Assembly: GCA_963811105.1 (NCBI GenBank)
Contig: CAWEPZ010000009.1
Span: forward strand, 32,001-96,000
From: Candidatus Bathyarchaeota archaeon
GTDB lineage: Archaea; Thermoproteota; Bathyarchaeia; Bathyarchaeales; Bathycorpusculaceae
DNA: 64,000 nucleotides
Direction: 5' to 3'
Shown: positions 3,366-58,057 of the stretch, in pieces
How the letters are laid out: each line of letters opens with the position of its first letter
Position numbering within the stretch: the stretch's first letter is position 1
Position numbers and translations under genes: made by a program
The notes under the pieces: model-generated
The model's input: only the letters and a program-made list of their open reading frames with translations
The model's database searches: none
What the model was told of the DNA's origin: nothing

Positions 3366-5591
3366 TTACTGAATTATTCTCGTGTTGTAGTCTCTAAGGT
3401 ATGCTAAGTGTGCCGCATCGTACGGGTAAGTTTCTGTCGCAGGATATGGGAAGCCGCTCATATCCATGAAAGGCAAGGGATTCACTGTGAAAGTAAATCC
3501 GTAGCCCCATTGTCCTGGTGGATCCTTAAACCAGCATGCGACAATAAGGAAGTAGTCTCTCACCATGCCAGGTGCTGGTGCTGAGAGATTAGTTGTTGGG
3601 AATAGAAGTTCTACCTGGTCGCCTTGGCGTCCAATCGCAAACATGTCATCTGCATTTTGAATGAGCGGTGTTACGTCACCGTATCTTGTGAAGTTGCCTG
3701 TAGAGTTAGTTGCGAAATCCCACCATGGGCTAAGGGTTGCAGTGGGGCTAATTTTTTGAACTTTTATGGTTTGTTGAGTCGTTGTGTCAATTCCGATATA
3801 GTCGTATGTTACGTTCCAGGAGTTGGTGATTCTTATTTGAAAGTCTGTAATGCCCTTGGGAAATAGTCCTGTTAAGTCAACAACAAAAGTTCTAGGGTTA
3901 GAGTCTGAAGGTACTGGTATTTGTCTATCCGCGGGGGCTCGTACCCAACTACCGTCTAAAGTTTTGATTTCCATATAAGTTGGCGGAGTAACCTGAGTGC
4001 CATTTGGTAAAAGTCCTTGGGCAACTGCTGTTCGGAGCGTGTCTATCCAGTTGTAATACGCCTCATATGATCCCCAATCAACTATTCCAGTCATTACTAG
4101 CTTAATTTGCTGTGCAGAAGATAGATCTCCTAAATCAAGCGTCAATTGATTTATTGTTGGGTTGTTATAAGATGGACTGAGATTCACGTTATTTCCAGGA
4201 GTATAAACGCCGTCTGACTGTAAGATTTTGGAGAGAACATTTTGGCCTTTTTCGTTGGTCGCTGAAACTGGCGATAACGTATTGGTTTTGTTTACTGTAT
4301 AAATTTGTTCATTTAGGCCCTTGTAAAGATAATTGGTCATGGTTGTATAGGCATCGGTGCCTGCTGGGTGGTCTACTACAATCATGTACGCTGCATCTAA
4401 GTAGAAGAGTTCATCCCATTTTTGAGAAAGAGTCATGTCATAGTAGCTATCGCCATTAATTGTCTTAGTTGCTATTACATTGCTATCAAGCTTAACGTAA
4501 TCCCACGGGTTTCCTCCATTGAACACGACTTCGCCATTTGAATTTATATAGCCCGTATATCCTAGCCAGCCAGAGTTTGAAACATCAGTGACATACGAGT
4601 TCCCTGTTCCATTCCATACGTAAAGTGATGGGCAAGAGGCATAACCACTGATTGTTACATAGGATGCAACAAGTATTCTGTAATTGTCTAGGGTAAACGT
4701 CTTTGAAGGGCTCTCTGTACCATCATTCCAATGTGTAAACTGAACCACTCCAGTTCCAACATCATAAGGACTGGGCACGGTTACTGTATACTCTCCAACA
4801 GGTACCAACTCTCTATACGGAGTCCCATATGAATGTCCATTTAGGGTAAACGGTAAGGGTTTGCCGACACCACCATTCCTAGTAATAAATAACGTATGAT
4901 ACCCAGTTTTTACAACTTCAAATGATCCTGTAAGAGTGTTTATTTTGACGTTATGGTAACCTTCTGACGTTGCATTAACAGTAAATACAATTTCCTCACT
5001 TGCTTGAGCATCTAGCTGGATAAATTGCGTTTGCACTATCGTGTTATCAACGGTTAATTTAATCGTAATCTTATCGCTTTCCGGCGAGGAATTTTTTGCA
5101 GTGGCAGTTATGTTAACAGGTTGGTCGACCCAAACCTCAAATGGTTCAGATACTAAATTTGACAATATAATTTTGCTTGATTCAGGAGGGGCTGGTTTAA
5201 TTGTAAAGTTTCCAACCAAATTGTCAACTGAAACGTTATAGTTGCCTTCCGCAGTTTCGATGTCAGTGAACTGAACAGTCTGTGATGAGTTGCCGGCAAG
5301 TGTTATGTTTTCTGCATCTCTGATTATGTCATTAATTCTAAAGTTTACCGTTTTATTGCCTTCTAAATCGCCGGTATTAGTGACATTAACCGATATTAGC
5401 ACTGCCTCGCCTGGATACACCTCAAGAGGATCAATGATTAGGTCTTTTAGAGCAAATTTAGCTGGCCTTGAAGCACCCACTATCATACCTTGGCTCGTAA
5501 GAAAAATAAAAGCTCCTGCAGCAGCACCGACAATGATAACATCGATTAAGAGAATTGCCTTCAGTTTAACCATCGCTGAACGCGACAACAT
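3366..5591 (-). CDS. Membrane-anchored surface protein with two CARDB/Ig-like domains and a large SCPxLYxWNG-initiated C-terminal domain
   Basis: N-terminal TM helix, repeated V(N)VTNxG-type Ig motifs, many NxS/T sequons. Confidence 0.7.
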   Translation of the reverse strand: MLSRSAMVKLKAILLIDVIIVGAAAGAFIFLTSQGMIVGASRPAKFALKDLIIDPLEVYPGEAVLISVNVTNTGDLEGNKTVNFRINDIIRDAENITLAGNSSQTVQFTDIETAEGNYNVSVDNLVGNFTIKPAPPESSKIILSNLVSEPFEVWVDQPVNITATAKNSSPESDKITIKLTVDNTIVQTQFIQLDAQASEEIVFTVNATSEGYHNVKINTLTGSFEVVKTGYHTLFITRNGGVGKPLPFTLNGHSYGTPYRELVPVGEYTVTVPSPYDVGTGVVQFTHWNDGTESPSKTFTLDNYRILVASYVTISGYASCPSLYVWNGTGNSYVTDVSNSGWLGYTGYINSNGEVVFNGGNPWDYVKLDSNVIATKTINGDSYYDMTLSQKWDELFYLDAAYMIVVDHPAGTDAYTTMTNYLYKGLNEQIYTVNKTNTLSPVSATNEKGQNVLSKILQSDGVYTPGNNVNLSPSYNNPTINQLTLDLGDLSSAQQIKLVMTGIVDWGSYEAYYNWIDTLRTAVAQGLLPNGTQVTPPTYMEIKTLDGSWVRAPADRQIPVPSDSNPRTFVVDLTGLFPKGITDFQIRITNSWNVTYDYIGIDTTTQQTIKVQKISPTATLSPWWDFATNSTGNFTRYGDVTPLIQNADDMFAIGRQGDQVELLFPTTNLSAPAPGMVRDYFLIVACWFKDPPGQWGYGFTFTVNPLPFMDMSGFPYPATETYPYDAAHLAYLRDYNTRIIQ

Positions 5592-14367: not shown

Positions 14368-16956
14368 ATGAAAAACCAAAAAATAATTGCGATAACCACA
14401 ATAATGCTTATGATTGCATCTATGATGCTAATGACTAATGGATTCGTGAAAGCGGCTGCACCGACAGTACCGACTTCAGGACCACTAGCTAGCGATGTTA
14501 GCGTTAACCAAACCGTAGTTTCTGCACACTTAAGCTTCAGACCTAACCCAGTCGGCGTTGGACAACCAGTACTAGTGAACATTTGGACCAGCCCCGCACC
14601 AGGCACAAATCGAAACCACCCACACTACTTAGTAACAATCACTCATCCTGACGGAACAAAAGACGTAATAGACAAGCCCTCATACGTAGCGGACGGAACA
14701 CAATGGTTCGAGTTCACACCAGACGTAGCTGGAGCATGGACTATTCAATTCGCATTTCCAGGCACATACTTCCCCGCAGGAACATACCTTTCTGGCACGT
14801 GGCTAAACAGTAGTACTAACCTAGGTAGCTTAGGATTAGGCGCAGTAGGGCCATCATCATATGCCCAAGCAGCTTACTACATGCCCGATACCACCCCAGT
14901 ACAAAACTTAACAGTGCAACAAGACATGGTTGGTTCTTGGCCGGTAGCTCCGTTACCAACAGACTATTGGACAAGACCAGTAAGCTTTAACATGAGAGAA
15001 TGGTGGCCAATCCTAGGCGCTTTTCCATGGTATGGACCAAGCGGGGTAACAGACCAGTTATGGCAACAATACTATCCTAATACCAGCTCAGTTTACAATC
15101 CAAGATCACAGTTCACTCCGTGGGTTCAAGGACCAAACAGCTGCCATGTAGTTTGGAAACAGATGCGAAACATTGATGGAATAGTCGGCGGAGACCAGAC
15201 AATCGCAGCATTAGGCTTCGAACTCAACGGGTACGGCGGAAAACCAAGCATAATATACGATGGCAGAGCCTATCAAACTATTAGCAAAGTGAATACAACT
15301 GGATCCAATAGTCTAACTTATTGGCAATGCTATGATATACGCACGGGACAACTTTACTGGGAACGCCCAATGTACCCAGGAGAAACAGCTCCAACAATCC
15401 TTGAATACACAACCGTTTCATATTCAGGTTCAGGAGTAATCGGCGCTGACATCACACCAAACACACCAGTTCTATTGTCCATAGGCAGTTCTGCTTTACG
15501 AACGTACAATCCTTTGACAGGTGCTATGACGGGAAACTATTCGATTGCTCCATTGACAACAGGCACATACTACATGAACGGATACTGCTTAAGTGTACAA
15601 AACATTGGTACAACTCAAGTCCCTAGCTATCGTTTGATCAACTGGACAACACAAGGAACAAGTGCAACAATTAATTCTAGAGTTGCAAGCAACACAACCT
15701 ACGCTTTGAGTGCACTTCCAAGCATTGTTGATTATGGCTCAGGCTATGGCGCAGCGGTCTCTGATGTCTCAGATGCTGGTACAGGCTCTTACACTAGAAT
15801 GAGGATAATTGGCTACAACCTCTGGACTGGCGAAATAACATTTAATACAACAATCAACGAACCACAATACAGCGGTTCTGCTAACCTTGCTGACCATGGC
15901 AAAGTCGCCGTATTATCCGCAAACGGATACTACGTAGCGTATGACCTAGCTACTGGCCACCTAGCATGGACAGGTCAAAAGATGGATTATCCATGGGATA
16001 GTTCAGGCTTTGGCACTTACGGTGTGCAATCAGCCTATGGTATGCTGTACAGAGAAGCTTATTCTGGCATTTACGCTTTTGACTGGAACACTGGCAAAAT
16101 AGTGTGGAAGTTCGAAGATCAAGCAGCATTCCCATATGAAGGTTCATACACCCTGCCTAACGGAACAACAACCTATCCATTTGACGACACTGCAATAATC
16201 GTCGACGGCAAAATGTACGTGTATAACGGCGAACATACCCCTAACGTTCCATTTACAAGAGGCTGGAGAACTTACGCAATCAACGCCACCAATGGCCAAC
16301 AAATCTGGGCTGTTTCAATTCCTGGATCTTCATATTTTAGCAGTACAGACTTAGTAGCAGCTGAAGGTTACTTATCTCTTGGTGGTGCTGACGGTTACCA
16401 ATACTGGTTCGGAAGAGGCTTAAGCGCTACTACTGTAACCGCTTCGCCAAAAGTCGTTGCAGATGGCTCACAAGTCCTCATCGAAGGCACTGTACTAGAT
16501 CAATCACCTGCTCAAATAGGAACACCCTGCGTATCTGATGCTTCGATGGCGACAGCTATGAATCACATCCATCAACAATTTCCAATCAACGGCATCACTG
16601 GCACTGAAACAATAACAGGTGTCCCATTAACGCTAACAGCTATTGGCACAGATGGTTCAGTTATCCCAATTGGCACAGTCACAACAAACGGCTACTACGG
16701 CACATACAGTTACGCATGGCAACCAACAAAACAAGATACTTACACTATTACAGCTTCATTTGCAGCAACAGACTCATACGGTAGCTCTTCTGCAGCAACC
16801 AGCGTCGTGGTAGGCGCAGCGGCATTAACTCCAACAGCAACACCAACACAAATAGCAACAGCGATAACAGACTACACCATAACAATTGTTGGCATGGGGA
16901 TCGCAGTAATTATTGCAGTTGCAATAGTCGGTCTCTTAATCCTTAGGAAAAGATAA
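14368..16956 (+). CDS. PQQ-binding-like beta-propeller surface protein, paralog 3
   Basis: Same architecture (RPNPVGVGQ, PLPTDYWTRPV, GEHTP, C-terminal TM followed by RKR); more diverged than paralogs 1 and 2. Confidence 0.85.
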   Translation: MKNQKIIAITTIMLMIASMMLMTNGFVKAAAPTVPTSGPLASDVSVNQTVVSAHLSFRPNPVGVGQPVLVNIWTSPAPGTNRNHPHYLVTITHPDGTKDVIDKPSYVADGTQWFEFTPDVAGAWTIQFAFPGTYFPAGTYLSGTWLNSSTNLGSLGLGAVGPSSYAQAAYYMPDTTPVQNLTVQQDMVGSWPVAPLPTDYWTRPVSFNMREWWPILGAFPWYGPSGVTDQLWQQYYPNTSSVYNPRSQFTPWVQGPNSCHVVWKQMRNIDGIVGGDQTIAALGFELNGYGGKPSIIYDGRAYQTISKVNTTGSNSLTYWQCYDIRTGQLYWERPMYPGETAPTILEYTTVSYSGSGVIGADITPNTPVLLSIGSSALRTYNPLTGAMTGNYSIAPLTTGTYYMNGYCLSVQNIGTTQVPSYRLINWTTQGTSATINSRVASNTTYALSALPSIVDYGSGYGAAVSDVSDAGTGSYTRMRIIGYNLWTGEITFNTTINEPQYSGSANLADHGKVAVLSANGYYVAYDLATGHLAWTGQKMDYPWDSSGFGTYGVQSAYGMLYREAYSGIYAFDWNTGKIVWKFEDQAAFPYEGSYTLPNGTTTYPFDDTAIIVDGKMYVYNGEHTPNVPFTRGWRTYAINATNGQQIWAVSIPGSSYFSSTDLVAAEGYLSLGGADGYQYWFGRGLSATTVTASPKVVADGSQVLIEGTVLDQSPAQIGTPCVSDASMATAMNHIHQQFPINGITGTETITGVPLTLTAIGTDGSVIPIGTVTTNGYYGTYSYAWQPTKQDTYTITASFAATDSYGSSSAATSVVVGAAALTPTATPTQIATAITDYTITIVGMGIAVIIAVAIVGLLILRKR

Positions 16957-47494: not shown

Positions 47495-49198
47495 TCAATT
47501 CGGAGTTTCGACATTTCTGCAGACTTTTGAAATAACCGAAATGATTGACCACATTGTGAAGATGCTAAACACTCTAGTGTACTTACGGGTACCTGCTTTT
47601 TTGACGGCCTCAACTTCTCCGCCAGCCCTCAGATAGCCCTCTATGAATGCTTTGGCAACTGCTTCTGCTTTGATGTTACCGTTTCCTAATGGTTGAATAT
47701 AATGTCCCGCATAGTACATGAAGACGGCAACGTCCCAAGCTCTATCGCCCTTTTCATCTTGCGATGCTTGTTCAAAATCAATCATGTACATAGAACCATC
47801 TTGTTTGACCAGCATGTTATCTGGCTTTGAATCCCCTAAAAGTATGTTATTGGAATGAACTTTAGCCATTATTTCTCCAGCCTGAGCAATTTTTGCTAAT
47901 TCAACTTCAAATTTCTCCCCGGGTGGCGCGGCGGAAACTCGCTTTATTATTTGACTGAGATTCTCTCCCTCTACAAACTCCATGAAAACCAAACGTTCAG
48001 TATTGCTAACGTGCAAAATTTTAGGAACATGAAATCCCTCACTACGTAATAACTCGTTTATTGCACATTCCTTAGCAAGCCTTGATTGAGCGCTAATGGC
48101 AAAGGGTCTTGCCCCAAGAGACCACACTGTCAAAGGAAACCATTTGAACCCAGACCAATCCTTAAACCGCTTAACCAACACTCGGTTCTCTTTACCGCCT
48201 TCTCTTACTTTAATCAAGTATACATCGTTTAGCATTCCGCCGAGAGGCTCAACTTCAATATCTCCGCTTTCATTCAAAAGCATTTTTTTCGCAAACCCTT
48301 TAATGTCTGTTTTATCGGATAGCGATGCTAAACCTGTTGAAGTTTGAAAGAACACGTATTGTTGTGGGTCCACAAACAAATATGGGTCTGGTTGTCTTCT
48401 CCAATTAATCTTTTGAGTTTTTAGAAAAGCTTCGGTGTTATGTGAAACAACGTTTATTAGCTGAGGAAAAGTGCCAAACAATGAGGAGAAAATGGTTCTT
48501 GGAACGGTTTTTGAAAGGTTGACTAATTTGATTATAGGGTTTTGACATTGAGCTAAGAATTCTTTTGAGATTTTAACGTCGCCTTCTGAAAAAATAATTT
48601 GCCCTTCTGCTTCAAGTTGACTCAACGCCTCTATATAGCCGCGAAGGAATTCAGTTTCATTTAATTTTAGTCCATTGATTAGGTTTGATGCTCCATAGGC
48701 GAGAAGAGGTGATAATCGGATTCGACTCAAAAGTACTTCATAAAGGAAATATGGGGGTCTGATTTGTAACCGATTAGTTAACTCAGGAAAACTTGAAGCT
48801 AAATTCTCAATTAGCTCTATAATTAATCGCTTCTTCAAGGCTACTTCTTTCTTATATAAGTAGTCTTCACCAAAAAGAGGTAAATAAGGAAAAATTAGTT
48901 TACTTGCAATTGCTTCTCCCAGAAGGCCATTTTCAATGTCTCGCTCGAAAATCCACTGATCAACTGCAGTAACATAAATGGTTTTTTCGTTTACTGCCTT
49001 TATATAACTCATGAGTCTTGGCTGAAAATTTTGCATTATCACCATTATTTCAATTATTGTTTTTTCGTTAACTGGAGTCATTGAGTAATTGTCGACATGT
49101 GCTATCGCTGCGACTTTAGCGGAGCCGGCAATGTGTCTGCAGAAATCAAGGATTTGAATGTTCAATGCATTGTTTGCAGCGTTGATAGCTTGTTTCAA
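47495..49198 (-). CDS. Protein with C-terminal atypical kinase domain (Kdo/Bud32/RIO-like)
   Basis: LGGMLNDVY, VLVKRF, VPKIL, MEFVEG, LGDSKPDN, IDFEQA. Confidence 0.8.
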   Translation of the reverse strand: MKQAINAANNALNIQILDFCRHIAGSAKVAAIAHVDNYSMTPVNEKTIIEIMVIMQNFQPRLMSYIKAVNEKTIYVTAVDQWIFERDIENGLLGEAIASKLIFPYLPLFGEDYLYKKEVALKKRLIIELIENLASSFPELTNRLQIRPPYFLYEVLLSRIRLSPLLAYGASNLINGLKLNETEFLRGYIEALSQLEAEGQIIFSEGDVKISKEFLAQCQNPIIKLVNLSKTVPRTIFSSLFGTFPQLINVVSHNTEAFLKTQKINWRRQPDPYLFVDPQQYVFFQTSTGLASLSDKTDIKGFAKKMLLNESGDIEVEPLGGMLNDVYLIKVREGGKENRVLVKRFKDWSGFKWFPLTVWSLGARPFAISAQSRLAKECAINELLRSEGFHVPKILHVSNTERLVFMEFVEGENLSQIIKRVSAAPPGEKFEVELAKIAQAGEIMAKVHSNNILLGDSKPDNMLVKQDGSMYMIDFEQASQDEKGDRAWDVAVFMYYAGHYIQPLGNGNIKAEAVAKAFIEGYLRAGGEVEAVKKAGTRKYTRVFSIFTMWSIISVISKVCRNVETPN

Positions 49199-49560
49199 TT
49201 AGTCACCAGTAGTTTAGACATCATAGAATTAGCATTTAGGGGTATTTAAAAACAAGTTCGATGAGGCAGAAAAAGCGATTTTCAGAGAACTTACTGGAAT
49301 CTGAATAAATGGAGCCTTTCGCGCTTGAGATAGCAGTTCTCTAAATGTGTTTGTAGTGCTAATCTTCTGGTTGGTGAACTTTAACGGTCCTCTTCCGGAC
49401 ATATATTGAGTATTGAAATACAATAAACACTGACATAAAGTTGACACATAATGAAAGCATACGAAAACATAATGCATAACAAATAACGTGTAAAATTAAC
49501 ATAAGGTAAATAAATTGAAGCATTATCCAATTAATAGAGAACGCCTGCAGGAACAACTCC

Positions 49561-49893
49561 TTGTCTGAAACCTACAAAAAAGAAATTGTACAACACATAA
49601 TCAGAAACTTATTAGACATACAATTGCTACGCATCATCCAATCCCAACCAACATGGGGATACCACATAAAAAAGCAGGTAGAAGCCGATTTCAGCATAAA
49701 ACTGCGGCATGGCGCATTATACCCAGCGTTAAATGCTCTTGAACGAAAAGGCTTCCTTGAAAGCACAACACAACAAAAAGGGAGACGAGTACGGAAGGTT
49801 TACGCAATTACAGAAAACGGCAAAGCATATTTGCAGGTGTACTACAGCATACTAAGGGCCCAACTTGGCAATGGGAACCTAAAAGCTAGTTGA
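49561..49893 (+). CDS. PadR-family transcriptional regulator
   Basis: WGYHIKK, GALYPALNALERKG, RKVYAITENG. Confidence 0.9.
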   Translation: MSETYKKEIVQHIIRNLLDIQLLRIIQSQPTWGYHIKKQVEADFSIKLRHGALYPALNALERKGFLESTTQQKGRRVRKVYAITENGKAYLQVYYSILRAQLGNGNLKAS

Positions 49894-50001
49894 ACGTGAG
49901 TTTTCTAAGATTCTTCAAGACTTTGTTTTGTTCTCTGTCAAGAATGAATTGGCATAACAAAGCTTTTATTCTAAATTGAATGACAAAGACCAGAGGATAA
50001 A

Positions 50002-50667
50002 ATGATGACTCTTGAGACAAGCAAAGCCATAGGTGGAATCGGCGCAATACTTCTTATCGTTTCAGCTATAGCATTCTTTGCTCAACCATTTCTGGCATTT
50101 ATCGGCGTTGTAGGAATTATACTTATCTTGTTTGCTCTCCATGGTTTAGCCGGCTACTACAACGAAAGCGGCATATTCAGCAACGCACTCTACAGTTTCA
50201 TCGCTACAATTGTTGGAGCAGTTCTAACAGTTGCGGGCTTCGTTTACCTGTTCTTATACACTACAGTTTTTACCGGCATCACAACTGTTATCTACCCTGA
50301 CTTTCACGGTGACTGGTCAACGATTCCAAACTTAACAGCCAACACAAACCTTAACCCAAATGACCTAGTACCTTTTGTTGGTACGATCCTTTCTGTTCTG
50401 GCTATCACGTGGATATTTCTCATAATCGCATCTTTCTTCTTGTGGCGTTCACTAAAACGTTTATCATCAAAGTCAAATGTTGGGTTATTCTCCACCGCAG
50501 CTATCATAATGCTCATAGGCTCAATAATCCCCGGAATAGGCTTAGTAATAATGTGGTTTGCTTTCCTGTTGATTGCAATTGCATTCTTCCAACTAAAACC
50601 CCAACCGGAACCACCTCAACAGACAGCAGCACCTATCCTTCCACCATCAATGCCTACACCAGTCTAA
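50002..50667 (+). CDS. DUF996-like membrane protein
   Basis: GGIGAILL, LAGYYNESGIF..AL, IAIAFF; Pro-rich tail. Confidence 0.75.
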   Translation: MMTLETSKAIGGIGAILLIVSAIAFFAQPFLAFIGVVGIILILFALHGLAGYYNESGIFSNALYSFIATIVGAVLTVAGFVYLFLYTTVFTGITTVIYPDFHGDWSTIPNLTANTNLNPNDLVPFVGTILSVLAITWIFLIIASFFLWRSLKRLSSKSNVGLFSTAAIIMLIGSIIPGIGLVIMWFAFLLIAIAFFQLKPQPEPPQQTAAPILPPSMPTPV

Positions 50668-51082
50668 ATAAACAAAACTCTTTTTCTATTTTTCATTTTC
50701 ATTTTAAATGATAGATCCTGATTTTCTCAACTCTTCTATTTCGTTTAAGAGATTTTATATTGGTCAATTTTAGGTTATACTCAAACTAACAGTACCACGA
50801 TTAAGATACCCAACAATTATCAAAAACAAAATTCCTAATAGAGCAAACGAAACCTGTGCTTTTTAAAATAGATGAGAATGTAACAGGCTTTGAATTATGC
50901 CATCTGTTGAACTTGAAAACTGTAGCCTTACAGCTGTTATCGTTTGGATATCAGATGTTATAGGCGTTTGGAATGCGACCGAAAACACTTGCTCCTTAAG
51001 GTGCACATCAATCGCAACTTACTACCGAGCCTGTCAGTTTGTTATAACCTGACATTGGTCCGGCGTCTTGAATAGCTTAATT

Positions 51083-51345
51083 TTATCGCGAAGCAGGCTC
51101 CTCAAAGCAAATTATTCCTTCGACTTGGCATGCTAAGATACTATCGTCCTTGATAGATTCTTCTATTTCCGCCTGCGTTCTTGCCATTGCGGGGTACTCG
51201 GGTGCAGTTATCTTCCAGAGTGATGCCTTGTTCTATTTCTTGTTTGTTCATTTTTTCATCACCTTTTTCACCAAAACCCATTAAAAGACTGGGACGATGC
51301 ATTATCAGCGGGGATGATGTCGCCGTCCCAGCCTTAGGGCAAAGT
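51083..51345 (-). mobile_element. Miniature, internally deleted derivative of the integrase locus at 55303-56335
   Basis: Same leader hairpin; start MNKQEIEQ vs MKKHALEQ; then QAEIEESIKDDSILACQVEGIICFEEPA vs QAEIEQAIKDDCILVCQSEGITYFKKPA. Confidence 0.8.
51286..51334. repeat. Hairpin repeat copy A (22-bp core 51310-51331)
   Basis: CTGGGACG...CGTCCCAG stem; core GGGGATGATGTCGCCGTCCCAG is identical to 56299-56320. Confidence 0.9.
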
Positions 51346-51419
51346 AATTTTTAGCTGGGGTTTTCCCTGATTTCTATTTGTAGTTGTCTAGTTATAAGCT
51401 TTTCGAAAAGGAAGTTCAG

Positions 51420-52763
51420 CTAGGTTAATTTTTGTCGTTCAAAATAATTGTATAAATCATCTTCAGAATGCAAATTCAATCTTTCCTTCTTCAAATTCAA
51501 ACGAATTATTGAATTCCTTACTAACGTACTTAATTGTCGCAATTCGGACAAAGAGACATAAGTAAATCCTCGATGGACAATATCAGACCTGTAAGTATAC
51601 ATATCTTTTATGAATTTCTTGATACGTTTTCTGTTATCATAATCTTTTGTTAAAAAAAGGGCACATCGCTCAGCAATATTATTTTGAATTGCTTCTCTGT
51701 TTCCATGCGTATAAAGAGCTTCGAACGCTACAAATATCTTGACGAGTTGTTCATTTGTTGAACCGTATTCATTAATCTCTTCTTTTTTAGTAATCGCCCT
51801 TTCTATAATTATTTTTTCATTATCAATTCTTCTAATGGATGTATCAAATATCCTTGCATACCAGTAAGTCGCAAGCAAGATCTTGCGTTCTATACCGCTC
51901 CTTTTTTTGGTCAACAAACTAGACATTTTCTTGAAACCAAATTTCTCCATTTCGTGCAGCTGTACTTTTGTTAAGGTAATCGGTCTGTAGTTTCCCACCA
52001 ACTCAATTCTTGGTGTTAATGATATGTTGCCATAAATTGATTCTTGCAAAATACCCCTTTTAGTGACTCCAAGAACTTCCCCTTCTATACCAAAATTACT
52101 ATTCTCCGTTGTTGCTTCCAAGCAGTAGAGTTTTAAAATATCCAATGCTGCGTTTACTTTGGTTAACGCAATTTCTTCTGCACGGTTCTCTTTACCAACA
52201 CATGTTGTTTCTGCGCATGTATTACCTATAAGACCTTTCAAATGGTCTTCCTTAAGTGTTTTTACGAAATCCCTTTTCTGAGCGGTTGTATAATAGGTAT
52301 TATTTCGTAATATCCGATAGAATGTCGCTATGGCTTTTTTTTCATGACTATGCTTGTATTTAAAAAATCGGATGCCGCCTACGGAAAAATCCTTTTCTAG
52401 CTGAAGATTTTTGACTGGAATGACAAATTTATAGGGTTTTATCTCACTTCTTATTGATATAATAAATTTCTTTAAGGATGCTTTAATATATGGCTCCTTT
52501 AATGCTAACGGATAAGCACTTGCCCGAGAAACAATATCTTGATACTTGCTTTCAATTTCTTTTATTGTGTAATTCCTTCGTATATCATTTGTTTTCAATG
52601 TTTCTCTAATCGCATCGTTAAACCGCTTATCAAGAATCTCATCTAGACTAATCGCTGGCATGTTTTCTTTAAACCAAATTCTAACCTCTTTCCCAGTGGA
52701 TTTGTTAGAACTTATAAAAAGTAAGTCTTCAACTACTTTTTGGTTATTAGTCTGGGTCTTCAT
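51420..52763 (-). CDS. HEPN-domain protein (ApeA/MAE_28990-like), putative defence RNase
   Basis: C-terminal AFEALY...IAER...YTYRSDIVH (Rx4H); AT-rich relative to the core genes. Confidence 0.75.
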   Translation of the reverse strand: MKTQTNNQKVVEDLLFISSNKSTGKEVRIWFKENMPAISLDEILDKRFNDAIRETLKTNDIRRNYTIKEIESKYQDIVSRASAYPLALKEPYIKASLKKFIISIRSEIKPYKFVIPVKNLQLEKDFSVGGIRFFKYKHSHEKKAIATFYRILRNNTYYTTAQKRDFVKTLKEDHLKGLIGNTCAETTCVGKENRAEEIALTKVNAALDILKLYCLEATTENSNFGIEGEVLGVTKRGILQESIYGNISLTPRIELVGNYRPITLTKVQLHEMEKFGFKKMSSLLTKKRSGIERKILLATYWYARIFDTSIRRIDNEKIIIERAITKKEEINEYGSTNEQLVKIFVAFEALYTHGNREAIQNNIAERCALFLTKDYDNRKRIKKFIKDMYTYRSDIVHRGFTYVSLSELRQLSTLVRNSIIRLNLKKERLNLHSEDDLYNYFERQKLT

Positions 52764-53076
52764 TAAACGATAACTCCATTTGTTATTTGTCGTGTATCGT
52801 GTTAACGATATCTTGGGTTAAACGTGTTTTAAGTTTTGCCTTCTTTTAGGTTAGTCAAATTCTCATAGATTCTTAAAATATTGATTGCAGTGCAAAAACA
52901 GAGTCCTTGCTTGTGAGGGGGGTGCCCTTTAGGGTGGTGTTCCTCACTAAGCGAGGTGTTTTTGCTTAGCAGTTGTGTTGTTGTCGTCAGATTTTAGATT
53001 CTTGGAGTATTCAAAAAATGGCTTTCTGATTACTCTTGTGCAGACATAGAGTAATTCCTTTTGCTTCTTTTTCAAA

Positions 53077-54618
53077 ACCCTAACTGCAACGTAATTAGGT
53101 AACAGGGTCTCTAGAAAGCAGTTTATTTTGTTCAAAATGGCAAATGGGCTTAGAATCTACCGCTAATTTATTATATCACCTGTTCCCTAATAGGGAACTC
53201 ATGGATGCTGCATTAAAAGAAATTGTCGAAAAAGCAAAAACGCAATACGGCCAGATAGAACTCAAAAACATCAAAGGCCGCTTCTACCTCTACAAAGTAA
53301 CCAGCAAATACGACCCTCAAAAGAAAGAAACGCGAAAAATCTCAGGCCAATACATCGGCAGAGTAACTCCACAAGGCATCATCCAAGCCAAAACCCATGA
53401 AAGAACCATCCACGAGTACGCAAACGCCAAACTCCTAAAAACGCTCCTAGACGACGTTATAGAAAACCTCCGCATCCACTTCCCAGATGAATGGCGCGAA
53501 ATAGCAGCTTTCTCAATTGTTCGAACAATCAGAAACGTACCTATAAAATACGTCAAAGAAGCATGGGAAAAACTCTACCTCTCCCGGGAAATAGATACAT
53601 CACTCTCACGAAATACCTTATCCGAAAAACTCAGAAACATAGGCGCTGACTGGGACGCACAGCACTCCTTCTTTCTCTCACTAATGCAAGGTCAAAACGT
53701 ATTCTTCTACGATCTCTCATCCATTTTCAGCCGATCCGTCAACCTAAACCTCGCCGAAAAAGGCTACAACAAAGAACACCAGTTTCTTGACCAAATCAAT
53801 TTTGCCCTGCTCTTCTCACAAGAACGCAAAACGCCTGTTATGCTCAAATCCATGCCCGGCTCAATAAGAGACATTAAGTCTCTTCAAGCGTTTATGATCG
53901 AGTTTCCTCTGAAAGAATGCATACTTGTCCTAGATAGAGGCTTCCAATCTGCGGTAACAGAGGATGATCTGGTTTCCATGGGTGCTTCATTTATTCAGCC
54001 TCTTAGGCGTAACTCAAAACTAATTGATTATTCTCTTGAGCCTCAAACGCTTTTTGCGTACAGAGACAGAGGCATAAAGTGCGCTTCAAAGGAGCTTTTG
54101 ATAGGCGGGAAGAAGGCGACGCTTTTTCTGTACGAGGATGTTTTGCTGCGGGGCGAGGAACATTCGAATCTTATCAAGTTGAAGTTGGCGCATGGTAATC
54201 AAATTACGATTGATGAGCGGTGTTTGGGGAAGATTGCGATTTTGTCGAATCTTGATTGGGGTGGGGCGAAGGTCTATTTTATGTATAAAGAGAGGGAAGA
54301 TGTTGAAACGGCGTTTGATGCTATGAAGAATGAGTTGGAGAATGATAAGGCGTATTTGGGCAATGATGATGCGGTGAGGGGGTATTTTTTTGTTTCTTTT
54401 CTTTCGCTTTACTTGTATTTTCGGGTGCTCGAGAGGATAAGGGCGGCGGATATGATTGGTGAGATTTCTGTGGAAGAATTGTTGTTTAAGCTTTCAACGG
54501 TGTATTTGGTTAAGTATCGGAGTGGTAAAGAGAGGTTGAGTGAGGTTCCATCAAAGGTTCAAAAATTGATGACAAAACTAGGTTTGGACCTGTTACCTAA
54601 AAATTGAGCAGTTAGGGT
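53077..54618 (+). mobile_element. Insertion sequence, IS1634-like (IS4 superfamily)
   Basis: About 30-bp imperfect terminal inverted repeats ACCCTAACTGC-N7-TTAGGTAACAGG at both ends; 7-bp target duplication TTTCAAA (53070-76 and 54619-25). Confidence 0.92.
53144..54607 (+). CDS. DDE transposase
   Basis: FYDLSS, GYNKE, LDRGF, YKEREDVETAFDAMK (YREK-like). Confidence 0.92.
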   Translation: MGLESTANLLYHLFPNRELMDAALKEIVEKAKTQYGQIELKNIKGRFYLYKVTSKYDPQKKETRKISGQYIGRVTPQGIIQAKTHERTIHEYANAKLLKTLLDDVIENLRIHFPDEWREIAAFSIVRTIRNVPIKYVKEAWEKLYLSREIDTSLSRNTLSEKLRNIGADWDAQHSFFLSLMQGQNVFFYDLSSIFSRSVNLNLAEKGYNKEHQFLDQINFALLFSQERKTPVMLKSMPGSIRDIKSLQAFMIEFPLKECILVLDRGFQSAVTEDDLVSMGASFIQPLRRNSKLIDYSLEPQTLFAYRDRGIKCASKELLIGGKKATLFLYEDVLLRGEEHSNLIKLKLAHGNQITIDERCLGKIAILSNLDWGGAKVYFMYKEREDVETAFDAMKNELENDKAYLGNDDAVRGYFFVSFLSLYLYFRVLERIRAADMIGEISVEELLFKLSTVYLVKYRSGKERLSEVPSKVQKLMTKLGLDLLPKN

Positions 54619-55302
54619 TTTCAAATCTTCTTTTGAAAAAACTTTTAAGCCTTTTACCGTTTTTCCTCCATTGTCTATTGAGTTATCGAAATAGAATTCG
54701 AAGACCTCAGTTTTATTAATAAGTTCAATGCTTGCAGTTTCTAAATTTTTTATGTAAATTATGTCTTTCTCAATAGTATTCTCAAAAAAACCAGTTTTCA
54801 CAAATTCACGAATCTTCTTTTCATATAAGTTTAGTGTTTGAAAGTAAAAGAAAAGTTCTCTTCTAAACTCTGGCGGTTTGATAAAAGCTATTTTGTCTGA
54901 AAGCAATTCTCTAACGCTATTACATCCAAAACGGTTGGTCTCTTCTTTGAGGATAGAAATGAGATTTTCTTGCTGTTCTTTATTTGAAAAATCAACTTCA
55001 GCAAATCCTCTTAGGTTTCCCGCTATCACCGCTAAGTAGTCCATGACCTTGAACAGATGAAATAATAACGGTGAATAAACATTGGCTTTTGTGTATTCAA
55101 TTTGTTCAATTGTTCTCTCTTTCTCTTTTGTTTTGTTATTAACATAGGTCTGTACCAGGATTGTTCCTAAAGAAGAAAGTACGGCAACTATTATTGAGCT
55201 AACAATAAAGGTAAGCGTTAATGATGACTCTGGGATTGCGGACATAGGTCTTAATTGATCGCTTTATCACTTAAGATTTGCCATTATTGGGTTTAGTGTT
55301 CC

Positions 55303-56239
55303 TTACGCTGGCTTTTTGAAATATGTTATTCCCTCTGATTGGCATACTAAGATGCAATCGTCTTTGATCGCTTGCTCTATCTCGGCTTGATTAAGGCAAA
55401 CTATAGGTATCCAAGTTATGTTTTGATCAAAGTTGCTGATGTATTTCTCTGTACTGCGACTATCTCGATGACCTAAAAGTTGTTTAACATGTAAAAAGTT
55501 GTGACTTGACAATTTGTATTCTTTACTTGCCTTAAATCGTCTGAAGTCATAAAGGCATACTTGCTTAAGCTCTGGCATGTTGTATTTTTTGGCTAATCTG
55601 TTTCTAGCATTGGCGGTATCCAGTTGAAAGATAATCTGATGTAGTGTTGAAATATTATGCTGGTCGGGTTTAGATTCTTTCTTTTAATGAATTCTTTTAG
55701 AAGGCTTACCGTTGACGGTTTGAGTTTTCCTTCTCTTCCGATTGTATGTTTTGCGCCTGTTATACTTACTATTCCCGAGGTTAAATCTACATCTTGAACT
55801 TTTAACCATGTTTTTTCTATAGGGCGTTTCCCAAATCTTTGGCTATTGACAGTTTAAGTTTCATTTCAAACCTAACGTGATTCAATTATGAAGTTTAGTA
55901 GTTCTTCTTTTGGGGCTTTACGTTTCTTATCATAGCGTTGATAGAAAGGCTTGTTCCACGTTTGACCTAATGATTTTACAAAAATGTTATAGGATTCTAT
56001 CAAGTTCTCTTTTCGGGCATTTGAGCAATTCTTTCTTGCTACAAAAAGCTTAACCTCTTCTGGATTGCTTATGTTGCAGTATTTTTCTAAGTGCCTCAGT
56101 TCCTTTCTTACTCTCTTAATGGTTGTTTGTTCATAGGCATTCTTTTAGCATCCAAATCATTAGGTTTGGAATGTTTAGTTTTCCTATATCTTGGGGCTCT
56201 TGGGCTGTTTGTTTTTTGTTCTAATGCATGTTTTTTCAT
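55303..56239 (-). pseudogene. Tyrosine recombinase/integrase, multiply frameshifted
   Basis: Fragments across frames: NPEEVKLFVARK, WNKPFY, RPIE, GAKH, LYDFRR, VKQLLGH..STEKY. Confidence 0.85.
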
Positions 56240-56276
56240 CTTTTCATCTCTCCTTTACCCCTAAAGCTTTATAGTG

Positions 56277-56334
56277 CTGGGACGGTGTTTTTTCGTTGGG
56301 GGATGATGTCGCCGTCCCAGTCTGATAGGGAAAG
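56277..56334. repeat. Hairpin repeat copy B (22-bp core 56299-56320), upstream of the integrase
   Basis: CTGGGACGG/CCGTCCCAG perfect 9-bp stem; shared TAGGG(C)AAAG flank with copy A. Confidence 0.9.
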
Positions 56335-56464
56335 ATGAAGAATAAAAGTTATGACAGACCCCAAACGATTGTACTCTTTAGCTGTGAATTGATGTAACCC
56401 GAGTCAAGTGCCATTTTATATAGCGTCGATAAGTAGTAGGATTAGTTATTGGTGCATCACTGGC

Positions 56465-56722
56465 ATGGGGAAGAGTCGAAAAAGCACGGTTCAGATTCGA
56501 TTCGAAATCCTAGAGTATATGTTTTTTAACTCAAAGCCTCAACTGCGCACAATTATCTGGCGGAAATCAACCAATCTTTCCTACGATGATTTTCTCAAAC
56601 ACTTGCAGTTTCTTGAAAGCAAAAACCTCATCAGAGAAACAGCTGAAGGCACCTGCATGCTAACGCCTGAAGGCAGAAACCTCTACATTGAATTGCGTAA
56701 GTCGCTTCCATCGATACTGTAA
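56465..56722 (+). CDS. Small winged-helix DNA-binding protein
   Basis: RKSTVQIRFEILE...TNLSYDDFLKHLQFLESKNLI...LTPEG; start at ATG 56465. Confidence 0.8.
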   Translation: MGKSRKSTVQIRFEILEYMFFNSKPQLRTIIWRKSTNLSYDDFLKHLQFLESKNLIRETAEGTCMLTPEGRNLYIELRKSLPSIL

Positions 56723-56730
56723 ACCGTAGA

Positions 56731-56758
56731 GTTCACTTGTGGTGCATCAGGTATAAAA
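56731..56758 (+). promoter_or_regulatory. Repeated motif plus TATA box
   Basis: GTTCACTTGTGGTGCATCA then TATAAAA; related copies at 57144 and 56450. Confidence 0.55.
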
Positions 56759-56791
56759 ACAAAAAACGCCTAAATAAAGCAGGAAACAGAA

Positions 56792-57142
56792 ATGGCTAAA
56801 GAAACCAGCGAAGACAAGCAGTATCCAGTCAAATCCTTACATGACTTCCTATCTGAGTTAGATAAGGAATACACAAAATTCCGCAATGGCACCCTGATTG
56901 GACTTGCATCTTCAGGAATCCTATTCATACTTGTTGTTGTTTTGCTGCTTAGAACAAGGCATTTTGAGTTGGGCCTGTTTGATTTTATTTTACTGTTAAT
57001 TGCGGGTGTACTTTTAGCTTACAGCATTTACGCCATGTACTCACAATATCGCTTTCTAAGTAGATGGGAGCGCAGAATTGGCTTGCTTCGCCATACGGAA
57101 GACGAGTTGCTTCAAGAAAAACTTGAAGACTCAAAAGTTTAG
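56792..57142 (+). CDS. Small two-TM membrane protein
   Basis: Two hydrophobic helices flanked by charged helices. Confidence 0.75.
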   Translation: MAKETSEDKQYPVKSLHDFLSELDKEYTKFRNGTLIGLASSGILFILVVVLLLRTRHFELGLFDFILLLIAGVLLAYSIYAMYSQYRFLSRWERRIGLLRHTEDELLQEKLEDSKV

Positions 57143-57233
57143 TGTTCATTTGTGGTGCACATCACGGGTGAGGCTTTCTTTTTAAACACCCCACCAAGAA
57201 GCATATATAGAAGTAATTTGGAGGTGGAAAAGA

Positions 57234-57737
57234 ATGATCAACTTAAGTAGAAAAAACAAAATTGCCATTGCTGCACTAGCCGCCTTGGCAATCGTGTTGG
57301 CTATTAGTGTGCCGTATGTGAGCGCTCAAACCGTTGCAAACAACGCTGCTTCAAACATAAGAACTCTAAGCGCCCACGGCAACATTTACCAAACAATCGA
57401 TAGCAACACCATAAAGTATTACAAAGCAGACCTAACCCTAACGCTTCAGCCGACCTCAACCAGCGGGGCAGTCAAGAAATTTGATGTAACAGGCGGGACA
57501 TTGGTGGCAAACGGCGTCACATACATCTTTACAAGCGGCAACGGAGGCGTCTTCACTGGTAGGCATGCGGTGCTTTTACAAGCTCAGGGCACAGACCCAG
57601 CAGGTCAGGCCGTTACATTTAAGCTTGCGGGGCAATATGGATACTCGTGGCTAAATGGGCATGTTGCTTTAAAAATCGGCGCTAAACTGCAGACAGCCGA
57701 CACTAACTACACCCTTATCATGCAAGCGCCTATCTAA
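57234..57737 (+). CDS. Secreted hypothetical beta-rich protein
   Basis: GGAGGTGG RBS, signal peptide ending VSA, T-rich terminator downstream. Confidence 0.8.
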   Translation: MINLSRKNKIAIAALAALAIVLAISVPYVSAQTVANNAASNIRTLSAHGNIYQTIDSNTIKYYKADLTLTLQPTSTSGAVKKFDVTGGTLVANGVTYIFTSGNGGVFTGRHAVLLQAQGTDPAGQAVTFKLAGQYGYSWLNGHVALKIGAKLQTADTNYTLIMQAPI

Positions 57738-58057
57738 ACAAATCTGAAATCTTTTTCTATCCTTTTTTCTTTAAAACAACCCTTTTCAATTCTAAAAATC
57801 TAAAGCCCTAAAACCTCGACTTCTTGGTAGATTTAGGGACCAAAACTAAACGCAACCAGCATAATATTCAACCACATAACTAAAAACCAACTTCAACCTT
57901 GCCCAAACATCCCAACATTCGCAATTATCGATTACGAAAGTCGCACAGGAAATGTTTTTTGCAGTAATCAAGTGTTCTTTTCGGAGAACAGACTGTTCCG
58001 CTGGGTGAATAATGTGAGACTTCTTAGATTGTATTCATAGAAGAAAAAGTGACTGTT

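Follow-up and report, generated by a model that had tools for sequence, protein, structure and literature searches.

A conserved 22-bp repeat as the likely recombination core of small integrative elements at a box C/D-type small RNA gene of Bathyarchaeia

In a 64,000-nt stretch of DNA from a Candidatus Bathyarchaeota archaeon (GCA_963811105.1, contig CAWEPZ010000009.1, positions 32,001-96,000; hereafter the window), the 22-mer GGGGATGATGTCGCCGTCCCAG occurs twice on the + strand in direct orientation, and its two exact copies (copy A, 51310-51331; copy B, 56299-56320) lie 4989 bp apart, each next to an integrase-like sequence. Why do 22 bases remain identical where the neighbouring DNA has diverged, and to what do they belong? 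An earlier annotation made from the letters alone (the sequence-only reading) regarded the repeat as the structured attachment site of a tyrosine recombinase, placed in the leader of the integrase gene itself. The comparison with related genomes leads us to a different proposal, namely that the 22-mer is the recombination core (attB as well as attP core) of small integrative elements which would insert into the 5' end of a conserved chromosomal gene for a box C/D-type small RNA (sRNA) in Bathyarchaeia. We assign this reading a probability of roughly 0.85. Throughout the text, G numbers denote genomes and L numbers retrieved loci; the source assembly (G000, with the window on contig C9) comprises 3.49 Mb.

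The repeat itself was described correctly at the outset, being exact at both sites and flanked by diverged DNA. Specifically, blastn alignment of the integrase-proximal flanks of copies A and B gave 89 identical positions out of 119 (75%) with 5 gaps. None of 100 dinucleotide shuffles contained a match to the 22-mer with up to three mismatches, and at the same stringency the whole assembly held no copy beyond the two in the window. Upstream of each copy, a short arm, CTGGGACG(G), is able to pair with the 22-mer (51289-51296 for copy A, 56277-56285 for copy B). The resulting DNA hairpin reaches -11.1 kcal/mol at copy A (z-score -1.9, with 7/200 shuffles folding equally well) and -10.3 kcal/mol at copy B (z-score -3.05, equalled by 0/200 shuffles). 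At both copies the arm lies 38 nt from a minus-strand ATG (51251 and 56239, respectively) that opens integrase-like sequence, as in the sequence-only reading, which had set the hairpin about 35-40 nt from an integrase-type start codon. Its statement that the core is not a tRNA end holds as well, since ARAGORN found no tRNA gene in the 64-kb window.

The sequence-only reading had also suggested searching for the 22-mer across related genomes. Allowing up to three mismatches, this search recovered it from 49/61 related genomes, including 33/36 of the same genus and 7/11 from other families of the order, mostly as one copy per genome, while the reversed control pattern had no match in any of the 61. 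Within the genus, the 22-mer was present in 105/120 genomes (71 of the 73 high-quality ones), and 45 of the 120 carried at least two copies. A near-universal, single-copy distribution of this kind is not expected of an integrase leader.

What the 22-mer belongs to becomes clear at copy B, where it forms the first 22 nt of a 64-nt gene whose boxes and guides are given in Table 1. Alignment of 52 distinct sequences of this gene showed that the blocks (stem, C, D', C' and D) are conserved, with a C-D' spacer of exactly 12 nt and a C'-D spacer that varies between 12 and 17 nt. The gene thus has what is looked for in a box C/D sRNA, namely C and D boxes joined by a terminal stem, as well as an internal pair of D' and C' boxes and guides some 12 nt long. 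The stem pairs GGG(G) with CCCC, and one of the 52 sequences (L003) has a compensatory UGGG...CCCA; the D box is CAGA, replaced by CUGA in L003, and the D' box is CUGA, replaced by CCGA in other families. The 22 bases are invariant because they make up the 5' stem, the C box and the D' guide. In full copies they vary at positions 1, 4, 9 and 12 only: position 9, within the C box, is changed in 2/64 distinct full copies, position 12 is the single guide base left unpaired with the rRNA target, and position 4 would fall in the kink-turn bulge. A relaxed Rfam scan of 91 nt returned 16 weak matches, all on the + strand, of which 15 were C/D-box snoRNA families matched mostly over their full length. 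The best of these was SNORD63 (20 bits, against a threshold of 43), and they included snoU31b (17.3 bits, against a gathering threshold of 37), whose consensus guide is nearly identical to the one found here. In addition, the source genome contains a fibrillarin gene.

A pairing scan of the genome's own rRNAs with the 10-nt invariant guide core, GCCGUCCCAG, gave one full match, including one G-U pair, at large-subunit rRNA position 2359 (CUGGGGCGGC), in the P-loop of 23S rRNA; any such match was found by 77 of 2000 shuffled guides. An exact 12-mer search of the genome for guide targets was discarded, as the loci found were not rRNA and the P-loop match contains a G-U pair. Following the N+5 (fifth-base) rule, the 2'-O-methyl group is predicted on the second G of the P-loop GGGG. 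Counted from two landmark motifs of a bacterial 23S record, with the numbers that these motifs are taken to have, this G corresponds to E. coli position 2251. This would be Gm2251, presumably a conserved P-loop methylation; the equivalent G is, we assume, the one guided by eukaryotic U31 and yeast snR67-type snoRNAs. The sRNA, which we predict to be expressed, therefore probably serves as a guide for P-loop ribosome methylation in Bathyarchaeia, as far as the guide pairing and its conservation indicate.

Three further features of the gene family were observed. The D guide (56339-56354 in the window) is hypervariable: its sequence and its length (12-17 nt) differ from species to species even where the locus is the same. 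Second full copies of the gene, with a different second guide and with neither an integrase nor an upstream arm, are present at another locus in two genomes (G003, L047 at 8615; G026, L052 at 8045) and apparently represent an unoccupied second target. Finally, in the native upstream region of L092 (G089, about 4259-4300), as well as in L097 and L095, GGGATGATAGG lies about 14-24 nt before the sRNA gene and resembles the first bases of the gene, GGGGATGATG; it could be the scar of an old recombination or a promoter feature.

The second line of evidence concerns the integrase. An intact 315-aa neighbour of the site (L024:1582-2529) matches PF00589 at 29.8 bits (cut-off 27.1; E value 6.4e-7) and the phrog_216 integrase at 7e-11; no sequence relative was found in the PDB at E<=1. 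A scan of the genus gave 28 loci with integrase matches of 41% identity or more; by their coordinates, 24 of them have a 22-mer on the opposite strand at a distance of 23-95 bp. Three more (G134, G136, G138) were confirmed on retrieved sequence, for a count of 27/28, and the last is cut by a contig start. Matches at 37% identity or less lie elsewhere and belong to other integrase clades, with the exception of second rows of loci already counted and of G099:C9 (35-37%, 91 bp from a site). Among public genome records, whose titles name Candidatus Bathyarchaeia or Bathyarchaeota, 22/26 integrase relatives have the site close upstream; of the other four, three are truncated at a contig edge and one is a fragment of 33 residues. 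The idea of a tyrosine-recombinase attachment core tied to one integrase family, put forward from the window alone, is supported by these counts. Relatives at 45-53% identity adjoin an sRNA variant typical of other families (L080, L083, L087), and the link between integrase and site therefore reaches beyond the genus. In 'short-type' genes, the integrase frame seemed to read on through the sRNA, which was rejected as a spurious hidden Markov model (HMM) extension without a start codon. At one locus (L046 in G003, 14979-15404), which has three sites in a row, the C-terminal half of an integrase (residues ~196-314) abuts the sRNA site (15324) directly, as though a deletion reaching up to the attachment site had taken away the N-terminal half.

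The third line is the layout of occupied sites and the existence of empty ones. The window and about 40 other loci contain both a partial and a full copy and, read along the sRNA strand, are all arranged as left flank, 22-mer and Y arm, then the element body, then a divergent integrase, the X arm, and the 22-mer with the complete sRNA. In every tabulated locus with both kinds, the integrase lies beside the full copy, and the partial, Y-type copy lies upstream. The two copies are separated by 0.9 to ~7.5 kb, with one pair 22 kb apart. The genes around the site follow a conserved order (kinase, PadR, PadR, DUF996, site, winged helix-turn-helix (wHTH), membrane protein, orf167, orf134), against which empty sites, also proposed beforehand as a check, could be recognised in two genomes. 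In G089, a complete sRNA follows 83 bp after DUF996 without an integrase, and the locus is colinear with window positions 49500-50708 and then 56296-56373, with 37 bp in place of 50709-56295. In G066, DUF996 is followed by 286 bp, the sRNA and then wHTH, mem116 and orf167 as in the window. In addition, the native sequence in front of the G089 sRNA, with a TATA-like TTTATTT stretch and the bases after it, reappears to the left of the partial copy in the occupied genomes G088, G138, G019, G105 and G026, as expected of attL. G003, G120 and G138 each have three sites in a row, and these tandem arrays, together with the one in the window, agree with the earlier suggestion that new elements insert into old ones. 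The core-Y junction was also found in 91 metagenome stretches, and the natural X-22-Y sites encountered are tandem junctions or lie on partial contigs.

Two observations on the surroundings of the site may be added here. The wHTH-membrane-orf167 module lies downstream of the sRNA in the window and upstream of it in G001 (L060), and it had no match in the retrieved loci of G012 (L059) and G089 (L092); this module therefore also moves or is lost. A locus without a full sRNA (L049, G029:C3) holds two partial core copies, at 8563 and 9416, one of them with a Y arm, which may stem from translocation of an element end or from insertion at a secondary site.

The arms on both sides of the core were then compared among sites. 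The upstream arm goes with the element rather than with the sRNA. Specifically, among 53 distinct full-length sites it is present in 26/28 with integrase evidence and absent from 12/25 without, and the 13 sites with an arm but no integrase retain recognisable X-arm or integrase-start sequence. The X arm is an inverted repeat of the 3' end of the core plus Y (AAACCCTAAG..CTGGGACGG, against the reverse complement AAGCCCTAAGGCTGGGACGG). Both blocks of the inverted repeat occur in 7/11 elements; in six of these, 0-4 of 200 shuffles did as well, and in the seventh, which is partial (G091), 12/200. The 30 partial copies, which are no longer sRNA genes, carry 22 mismatches, all in positions 1-13 and none in positions 14-22, and this pattern suggests that CCGTCCCAG and Y are kept for their own sake. 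The conserved Y arm reads CCTTAGGGCaaAgTAATTTttt; a consensus was taken over 90 distinct Y flanks, in many of which the first nine bases are fixed by the search pattern and the remaining bases are not. A run of at least four T within 9-32 nt after the core is present in 70/90 distinct Y flanks and in 0/74 full-sRNA flanks; it could stop transcription from the orphaned native promoter. Most likely, the two arms of this inverted repeat are the integrase-binding sites of attP.

All together, these data suggest the following course of events. The element would carry X-22-Y, where X is the integrase-proximal arm (a TATA-like stretch and CCCTAAG..CTGGGACGG) and Y is CCTTAGGGCAAAGTAATTTTT. Recombination, with a crossover point that we infer to lie within the 22-mer, would produce on one side an attL consisting of the native promoter, the 22-mer and Y, a dead stub, and on the other an attR consisting of the integrase, X, the 22-mer and the rest of the sRNA. 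The sRNA would thus stay intact and stand behind element DNA, with X as its presumed supplier of a promoter, and the rebuilt site could take a further element, giving tandem arrays. The hairpin noticed in the sequence-only reading would then be the inner block of the attP inverted repeat, formed by the X arm and core positions 14-22. Since element DNA takes the place of the sequence upstream of the sRNA, this gene appears to be driven by element-derived DNA in many lineages today.

Several points weigh against this proposal and are gathered here. Both the C box (AUGAUGU) and the D box (CAGA) differ at one base from what textbooks give as consensus (RUGAUGA and CUGA), even if, by inspection, the deviating C-box U7 and D-box A2 can pair with their partners. 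Rfam gave no match to the sRNA gene at gathering score, nor any at E<=1 over 49000-58000, a lack that weighs little because Rfam holds few archaeal families. No RNA sequencing run holding the locus, and with it no evidence of expression, was found among public runs. The D guide of the window sRNA had no target in rRNA or tRNA, and when the match of the D' guide to rRNA was scored as a 12-mer with wobble weights, 119/300 shuffles scored as well. The strength of the hairpin is uneven (z-scores from -0.09 to -3.05 over seven natural sites), and the 27-29 bp between the arms exceed the width of a canonical tyrosine-recombinase core. Since genomes of one genus are related by descent, the counts given above are not independent events. 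Finally, circular junctions joining the two cores, which had been named as a check from the start, did not turn up: terminal overlap revealed no circular element in any of 80 metagenome loci (of the 91 core-Y stretches), and viral contigs contained neither an exact core-Y match nor an integrase relative. With no free circular form, excision and integration are derived from comparative genomics only.

Some of these points would fit a 64-nt gene that is real, and is the target, but encodes some other small RNA or is a protein-binding DNA element and not a methylation-guide C/D sRNA; this applies to the boxes one base off, the missing Rfam family, the lack of an RNA run and the D guide without a target. 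We consider such an identity unlikely, given that none of the four boxes is missing, that their spacing is canonical and a terminal stem exists, that 15/16 of the weak Rfam matches are C/D families on the right strand, mostly full-length, and that the invariant guide bases are exactly those which pair with the P-loop.

The sequence-only reading itself, in which the structured site belongs to the leader of the integrase, independently of any host gene, and accretes cargo in an integron-like way, can draw on the hairpins at both window copies, on the association of the arm with the integrase and on the existence of tandem arrays. Still, we find it very improbable. Its core belongs to a conserved gene on the other strand, whose first 22 nt it forms; 12 of the 53 full sites carry this gene with neither integrase nor arm, and in G089 the gene stands behind its native promoter. 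As to the integron-like part, each unit has its own integrase, no attC-type cassette boundaries were seen, and the integron-integrase model scores 15.8 bits against a cut-off of 265.

Equally hard to credit is the related proposal that the hairpin is a cis-regulatory leader RNA acting on translation or stability of the integrase message, with the repeat reflecting two integrase genes with the same leader. The 38 nt between arm and ATG would suit such a role, and so would the extended hairpin of the + strand RNA (-28.5 kcal/mol, z-score -2.2). However, a TATA-like stretch lies between the arm and the integrase ATG, and a leader starting from that promoter would exclude the hairpin. Moreover, arm variants such as CTGGAACG, CGGGGACG and CTGGGACT often break the pairing, the function of the partner arm in the sRNA keeps it constant, and the empty sites and the attL/attR layout are left unexplained. 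A leader RNA is not needed to account for the conservation of the 22-mer. The least probable explanation, a local duplication of an integrase-plus-leader segment without mobility, has in its favour two direct copies in one genome and is ruled out by flanks 75% alike around an exact core, by the 100% identity of the right flank of copy A over 40 nt to the attL of another species, by the recurrence of the same layout with varied cargo and sizes (1 to ~7.5 kb; one pair 22 kb) in 45/120 genomes, and by the empty sites.

Returning to the integrative elements proposed here, the empty sites in relatives define the window island as 50709-56298, and its features are listed in Table 1.

Table 1. Features of the island and of the sRNA gene in the window (positions count from the first letter of the window).
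Feature	Position	Strand	Remarks
Older element remnant (E1)	50709-51309	-	Integrase scrap A and X arm with TATA-like stretch and CTGGGACG at 51289-51296
Integrase scrap A	51083-51251	-	~18 N-terminal and ~33 C-terminal codons (open reading frame translations, blastn to B)
Core copy A	51310-51331	+	Partial sRNA copy, nt 1-22 only; Y arm in place of D' box; X-22-Y junction between two tandem elements
Y arm of younger element, CCTTAGGGCAAAGTAATTTTT	51332-51352	+	Outer palindrome block and T-run
Cargo open reading frame, 447 aa	51420-52763	-	Weak HEPN_Apea-like lead
Strong hairpin, then T-run	52905-52960		-14.2 kcal/mol, z-score -4.0; between 447-aa frame and insertion sequence
IS1634-family insertion sequence	53070-54625	+	Transposase 53144-54607; 37-nt terminal inverted repeats, 81% complementary
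Cargo open reading frame, 228 aa	54559-55245	-	N-terminal hydrophobic segment; 3' end runs into insertion sequence
Tyrosine-integrase pseudogene B, younger element	55303-56239	-	tblastn: four pieces, query residues 14-313, different frames
X arm, element side of attR	56240-56298		TATA-like CTTTATAG 56267-56274; inverted-repeat arm CTGGGACGG 56277-56285; now upstream of sRNA gene
Full box C/D-type sRNA gene	56299-56362	+	52 distinct sequences aligned; begins with core copy B (nt 1-22)
sRNA 5' stem GGGG	56299-56302	+	
sRNA C box AUGAUGU	56303-56309	+	
sRNA D' guide CGCCGUCCCAGU, 12 nt	56310-56321	+	
sRNA D' box CUGA	56322-56325	+	Followed by loop
sRNA C' box AAGAUGA	56332-56338	+	
sRNA D guide, variable	56339-56354	+	
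sRNA D box CAGA	56355-56358	+	
sRNA 3' stem CCCC	56359-56362	+	

The island consists of two decayed element generations, an older remnant of about 600 bp and a younger element of 5 kb, and the window's own copies of the core are relics. In G089 and G026, the distance from the end of DUF996 to the 22-mer is 37-84 bp, compared to 600 bp in the window, and the older remnant replaces the native promoter of the sRNA, which takes up about 40 bp in other genomes. Copy A is thus an X-22-Y junction between an older, mostly deleted element and the younger one. Copy A with the following 18 nt of Y (40 nt in all) is 100% identical to the attL of G026, a different species. Both window integrases are dead. 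Scrap A, reduced to its terminal codons, gives a weak HMM match to integrase positions 281-313 (E value 0.04), and pseudogene B is broken by frameshifts and stops into at least four frame pieces and is matched in pieces by the HMM as well.

The cargo of the younger element was only in part as first described. The HEPN gene that had been placed in the island is the 447-aa open reading frame (ORF), which had no match in Pfam, PADLOC, PHROG or NCBIfam and is left with an Atlas lead to HEPN_Apea (0.87-0.89). The features between the two copies, held to be all co-oriented, are not, because the IS1634-family insertion, which had been overlooked, sits on the + strand. Its transposase scores 140.8 bits against a cut-off of 100, and the insertion sequence (IS) is single-copy in the assembly. 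The right end of the IS overlaps the 3' end of the 228-aa ORF and may have truncated it; this ORF had no match in Pfam, PADLOC, PHROGs or NCBIfam. The further hairpin, noted earlier near 52913-52947, is real, with the folding values of Table 1, and has one weak partial match elsewhere in the genome (C2:224246-224286). Contigs of several public runs (X3 and X4 among the rows shown) break at 52890-52891, near this hairpin. Public DNA runs matching the locus share at most 0.12 of the sequence words, and the four runs examined gave only contigs of related organisms. Among these contigs, one joins 50602 to 51310 and another 55356 to 56297, with unknown letters in between, and we gave them no weight.

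In relatives, the elements carry other proteins. Comparing 15 elements, the genes shared beside the integrase encode proteins of ~335 aa (8/15), ~110 aa (7/15) and ~210 aa (5/15). The ~335-aa protein (L045 11184-12176 and its homologues) has invariant cysteine pairs, an HFH motif and a WYQ motif, with the gene of the ~110-aa partner directly downstream. Searches in Pfam, PADLOC, PHROGs and NCBIfam found nothing for it, a PDB profile search found nothing useful, and an AlphaFold2 model with a mean confidence score (pLDDT) of 34 was not used. Its Atlas neighbours at 0.95-0.96 carry Rep_1 in 41-64% of members, and a rolling-circle initiator is a lead here, not a finding. The younger window element has lost this core; it holds the 447-aa ORF, the 228-aa ORF, the hairpin, the IS and the integrase pseudogene.

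The element-borne arm CTGGGACGG is a perfect mimic of the rRNA target of the sRNA guide. As a long shot, the resident C/D sRNA or its ribonucleoprotein might recognise the arm by pairing, either while the DNA is open or on a transcript reading through it, and so aid the choice of site or the timing of recombination or of integrase expression; the arm would then do more than serve as an inverted site for protein binding. If true, this would represent an RNA-guided input into a tyrosine-recombinase system, in which the element would also take over the promoter of a ribosome-modification guide.

As regards the significance of these data, a box C/D sRNA gene serving as attB would add a new target class for archaeal integrases, and the finding would point to a conserved archaeal guide for methylation of the P-loop G. 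The 22-bp word would provide a simple marker for small mobile elements in Bathyarchaeia, a lineage that is abundant and uncultured and from which few elements are known, and promoter replacement by an element is an evolutionary consequence that can be tested. In addition, the intact integrases, whose attP measures ~90 bp and attB ~25 bp, make candidate genetic tools for archaea.

The targets described for archaeal integrases are tRNA genes, intergenic sites and a few protein genes. Against this background the mechanism proposed here is classical, that of site-specific integrative elements, and the target class looks new: the literature searched, to which subscription journals and supplementary files did not belong, contained no report of a box C/D sRNA gene as integration target. 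The words sRNA, snoRNA and non-coding RNA are absent from a 2021 review of archaeal tyrosine recombinases (PMC8371274), and a paper on Bathyarchaeia viruses mentions integrases and, in the part seen, no such site (PMC10541130). Among bacterial phages, some use small non-tRNA RNA genes, e.g. ffs (4.5S RNA) (PMC12540744).

The elements are not of the SSV type (type I), in which the attachment site lies inside the integrase gene, because here the integrase gene stays whole, and intact integrase ORFs lie beside attR. With integrons they share a tyrosine recombinase and repeated sites between gene-carrying units; they differ from them in having no IntI-type integrase (TIGR02249, at the score given above), no attI/attC and no promoterless single-gene cassettes, each unit of 1-7.5 kb carrying its own integrase. 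Classical lambda-type prophages and islands that target tRNA, tmRNA or small RNA genes likewise show direct repeats of the target end, an integrase by one attachment site, a regenerated target and arrays built by repeated integration. Compared to these, the elements described here duplicate the 5' end of the target and not the 3' end, so that the promoter side is exchanged, and they use another target class in an archaeal host. As to the target, the snoU31/snR67-type guides and the archaeal C/D sRNAs in Rfam have the same box architecture, and the guide of snoU31b is near-identical, either by homology or by convergence on the same target. The nearest described case is that of the pTN3-like integrases of Thermococcales, for which the attachment site is the 5' half of a tRNA gene and the recombinant tRNA is expressed from the integrase promoter (PMC8371274). 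The present system differs from it in its target, a box C/D-type sRNA gene, and in its host, Bathyarchaeia; the likeness drawn here concerns layout, and the presumed supply of a promoter by X would correspond to expression from the integrase promoter. In both systems, a tyrosine integrase has as its attachment core the 5' part of a small stable-RNA gene, an uninterrupted copy of the target is restored beside the integrase gene, and the integrase gene stays whole.

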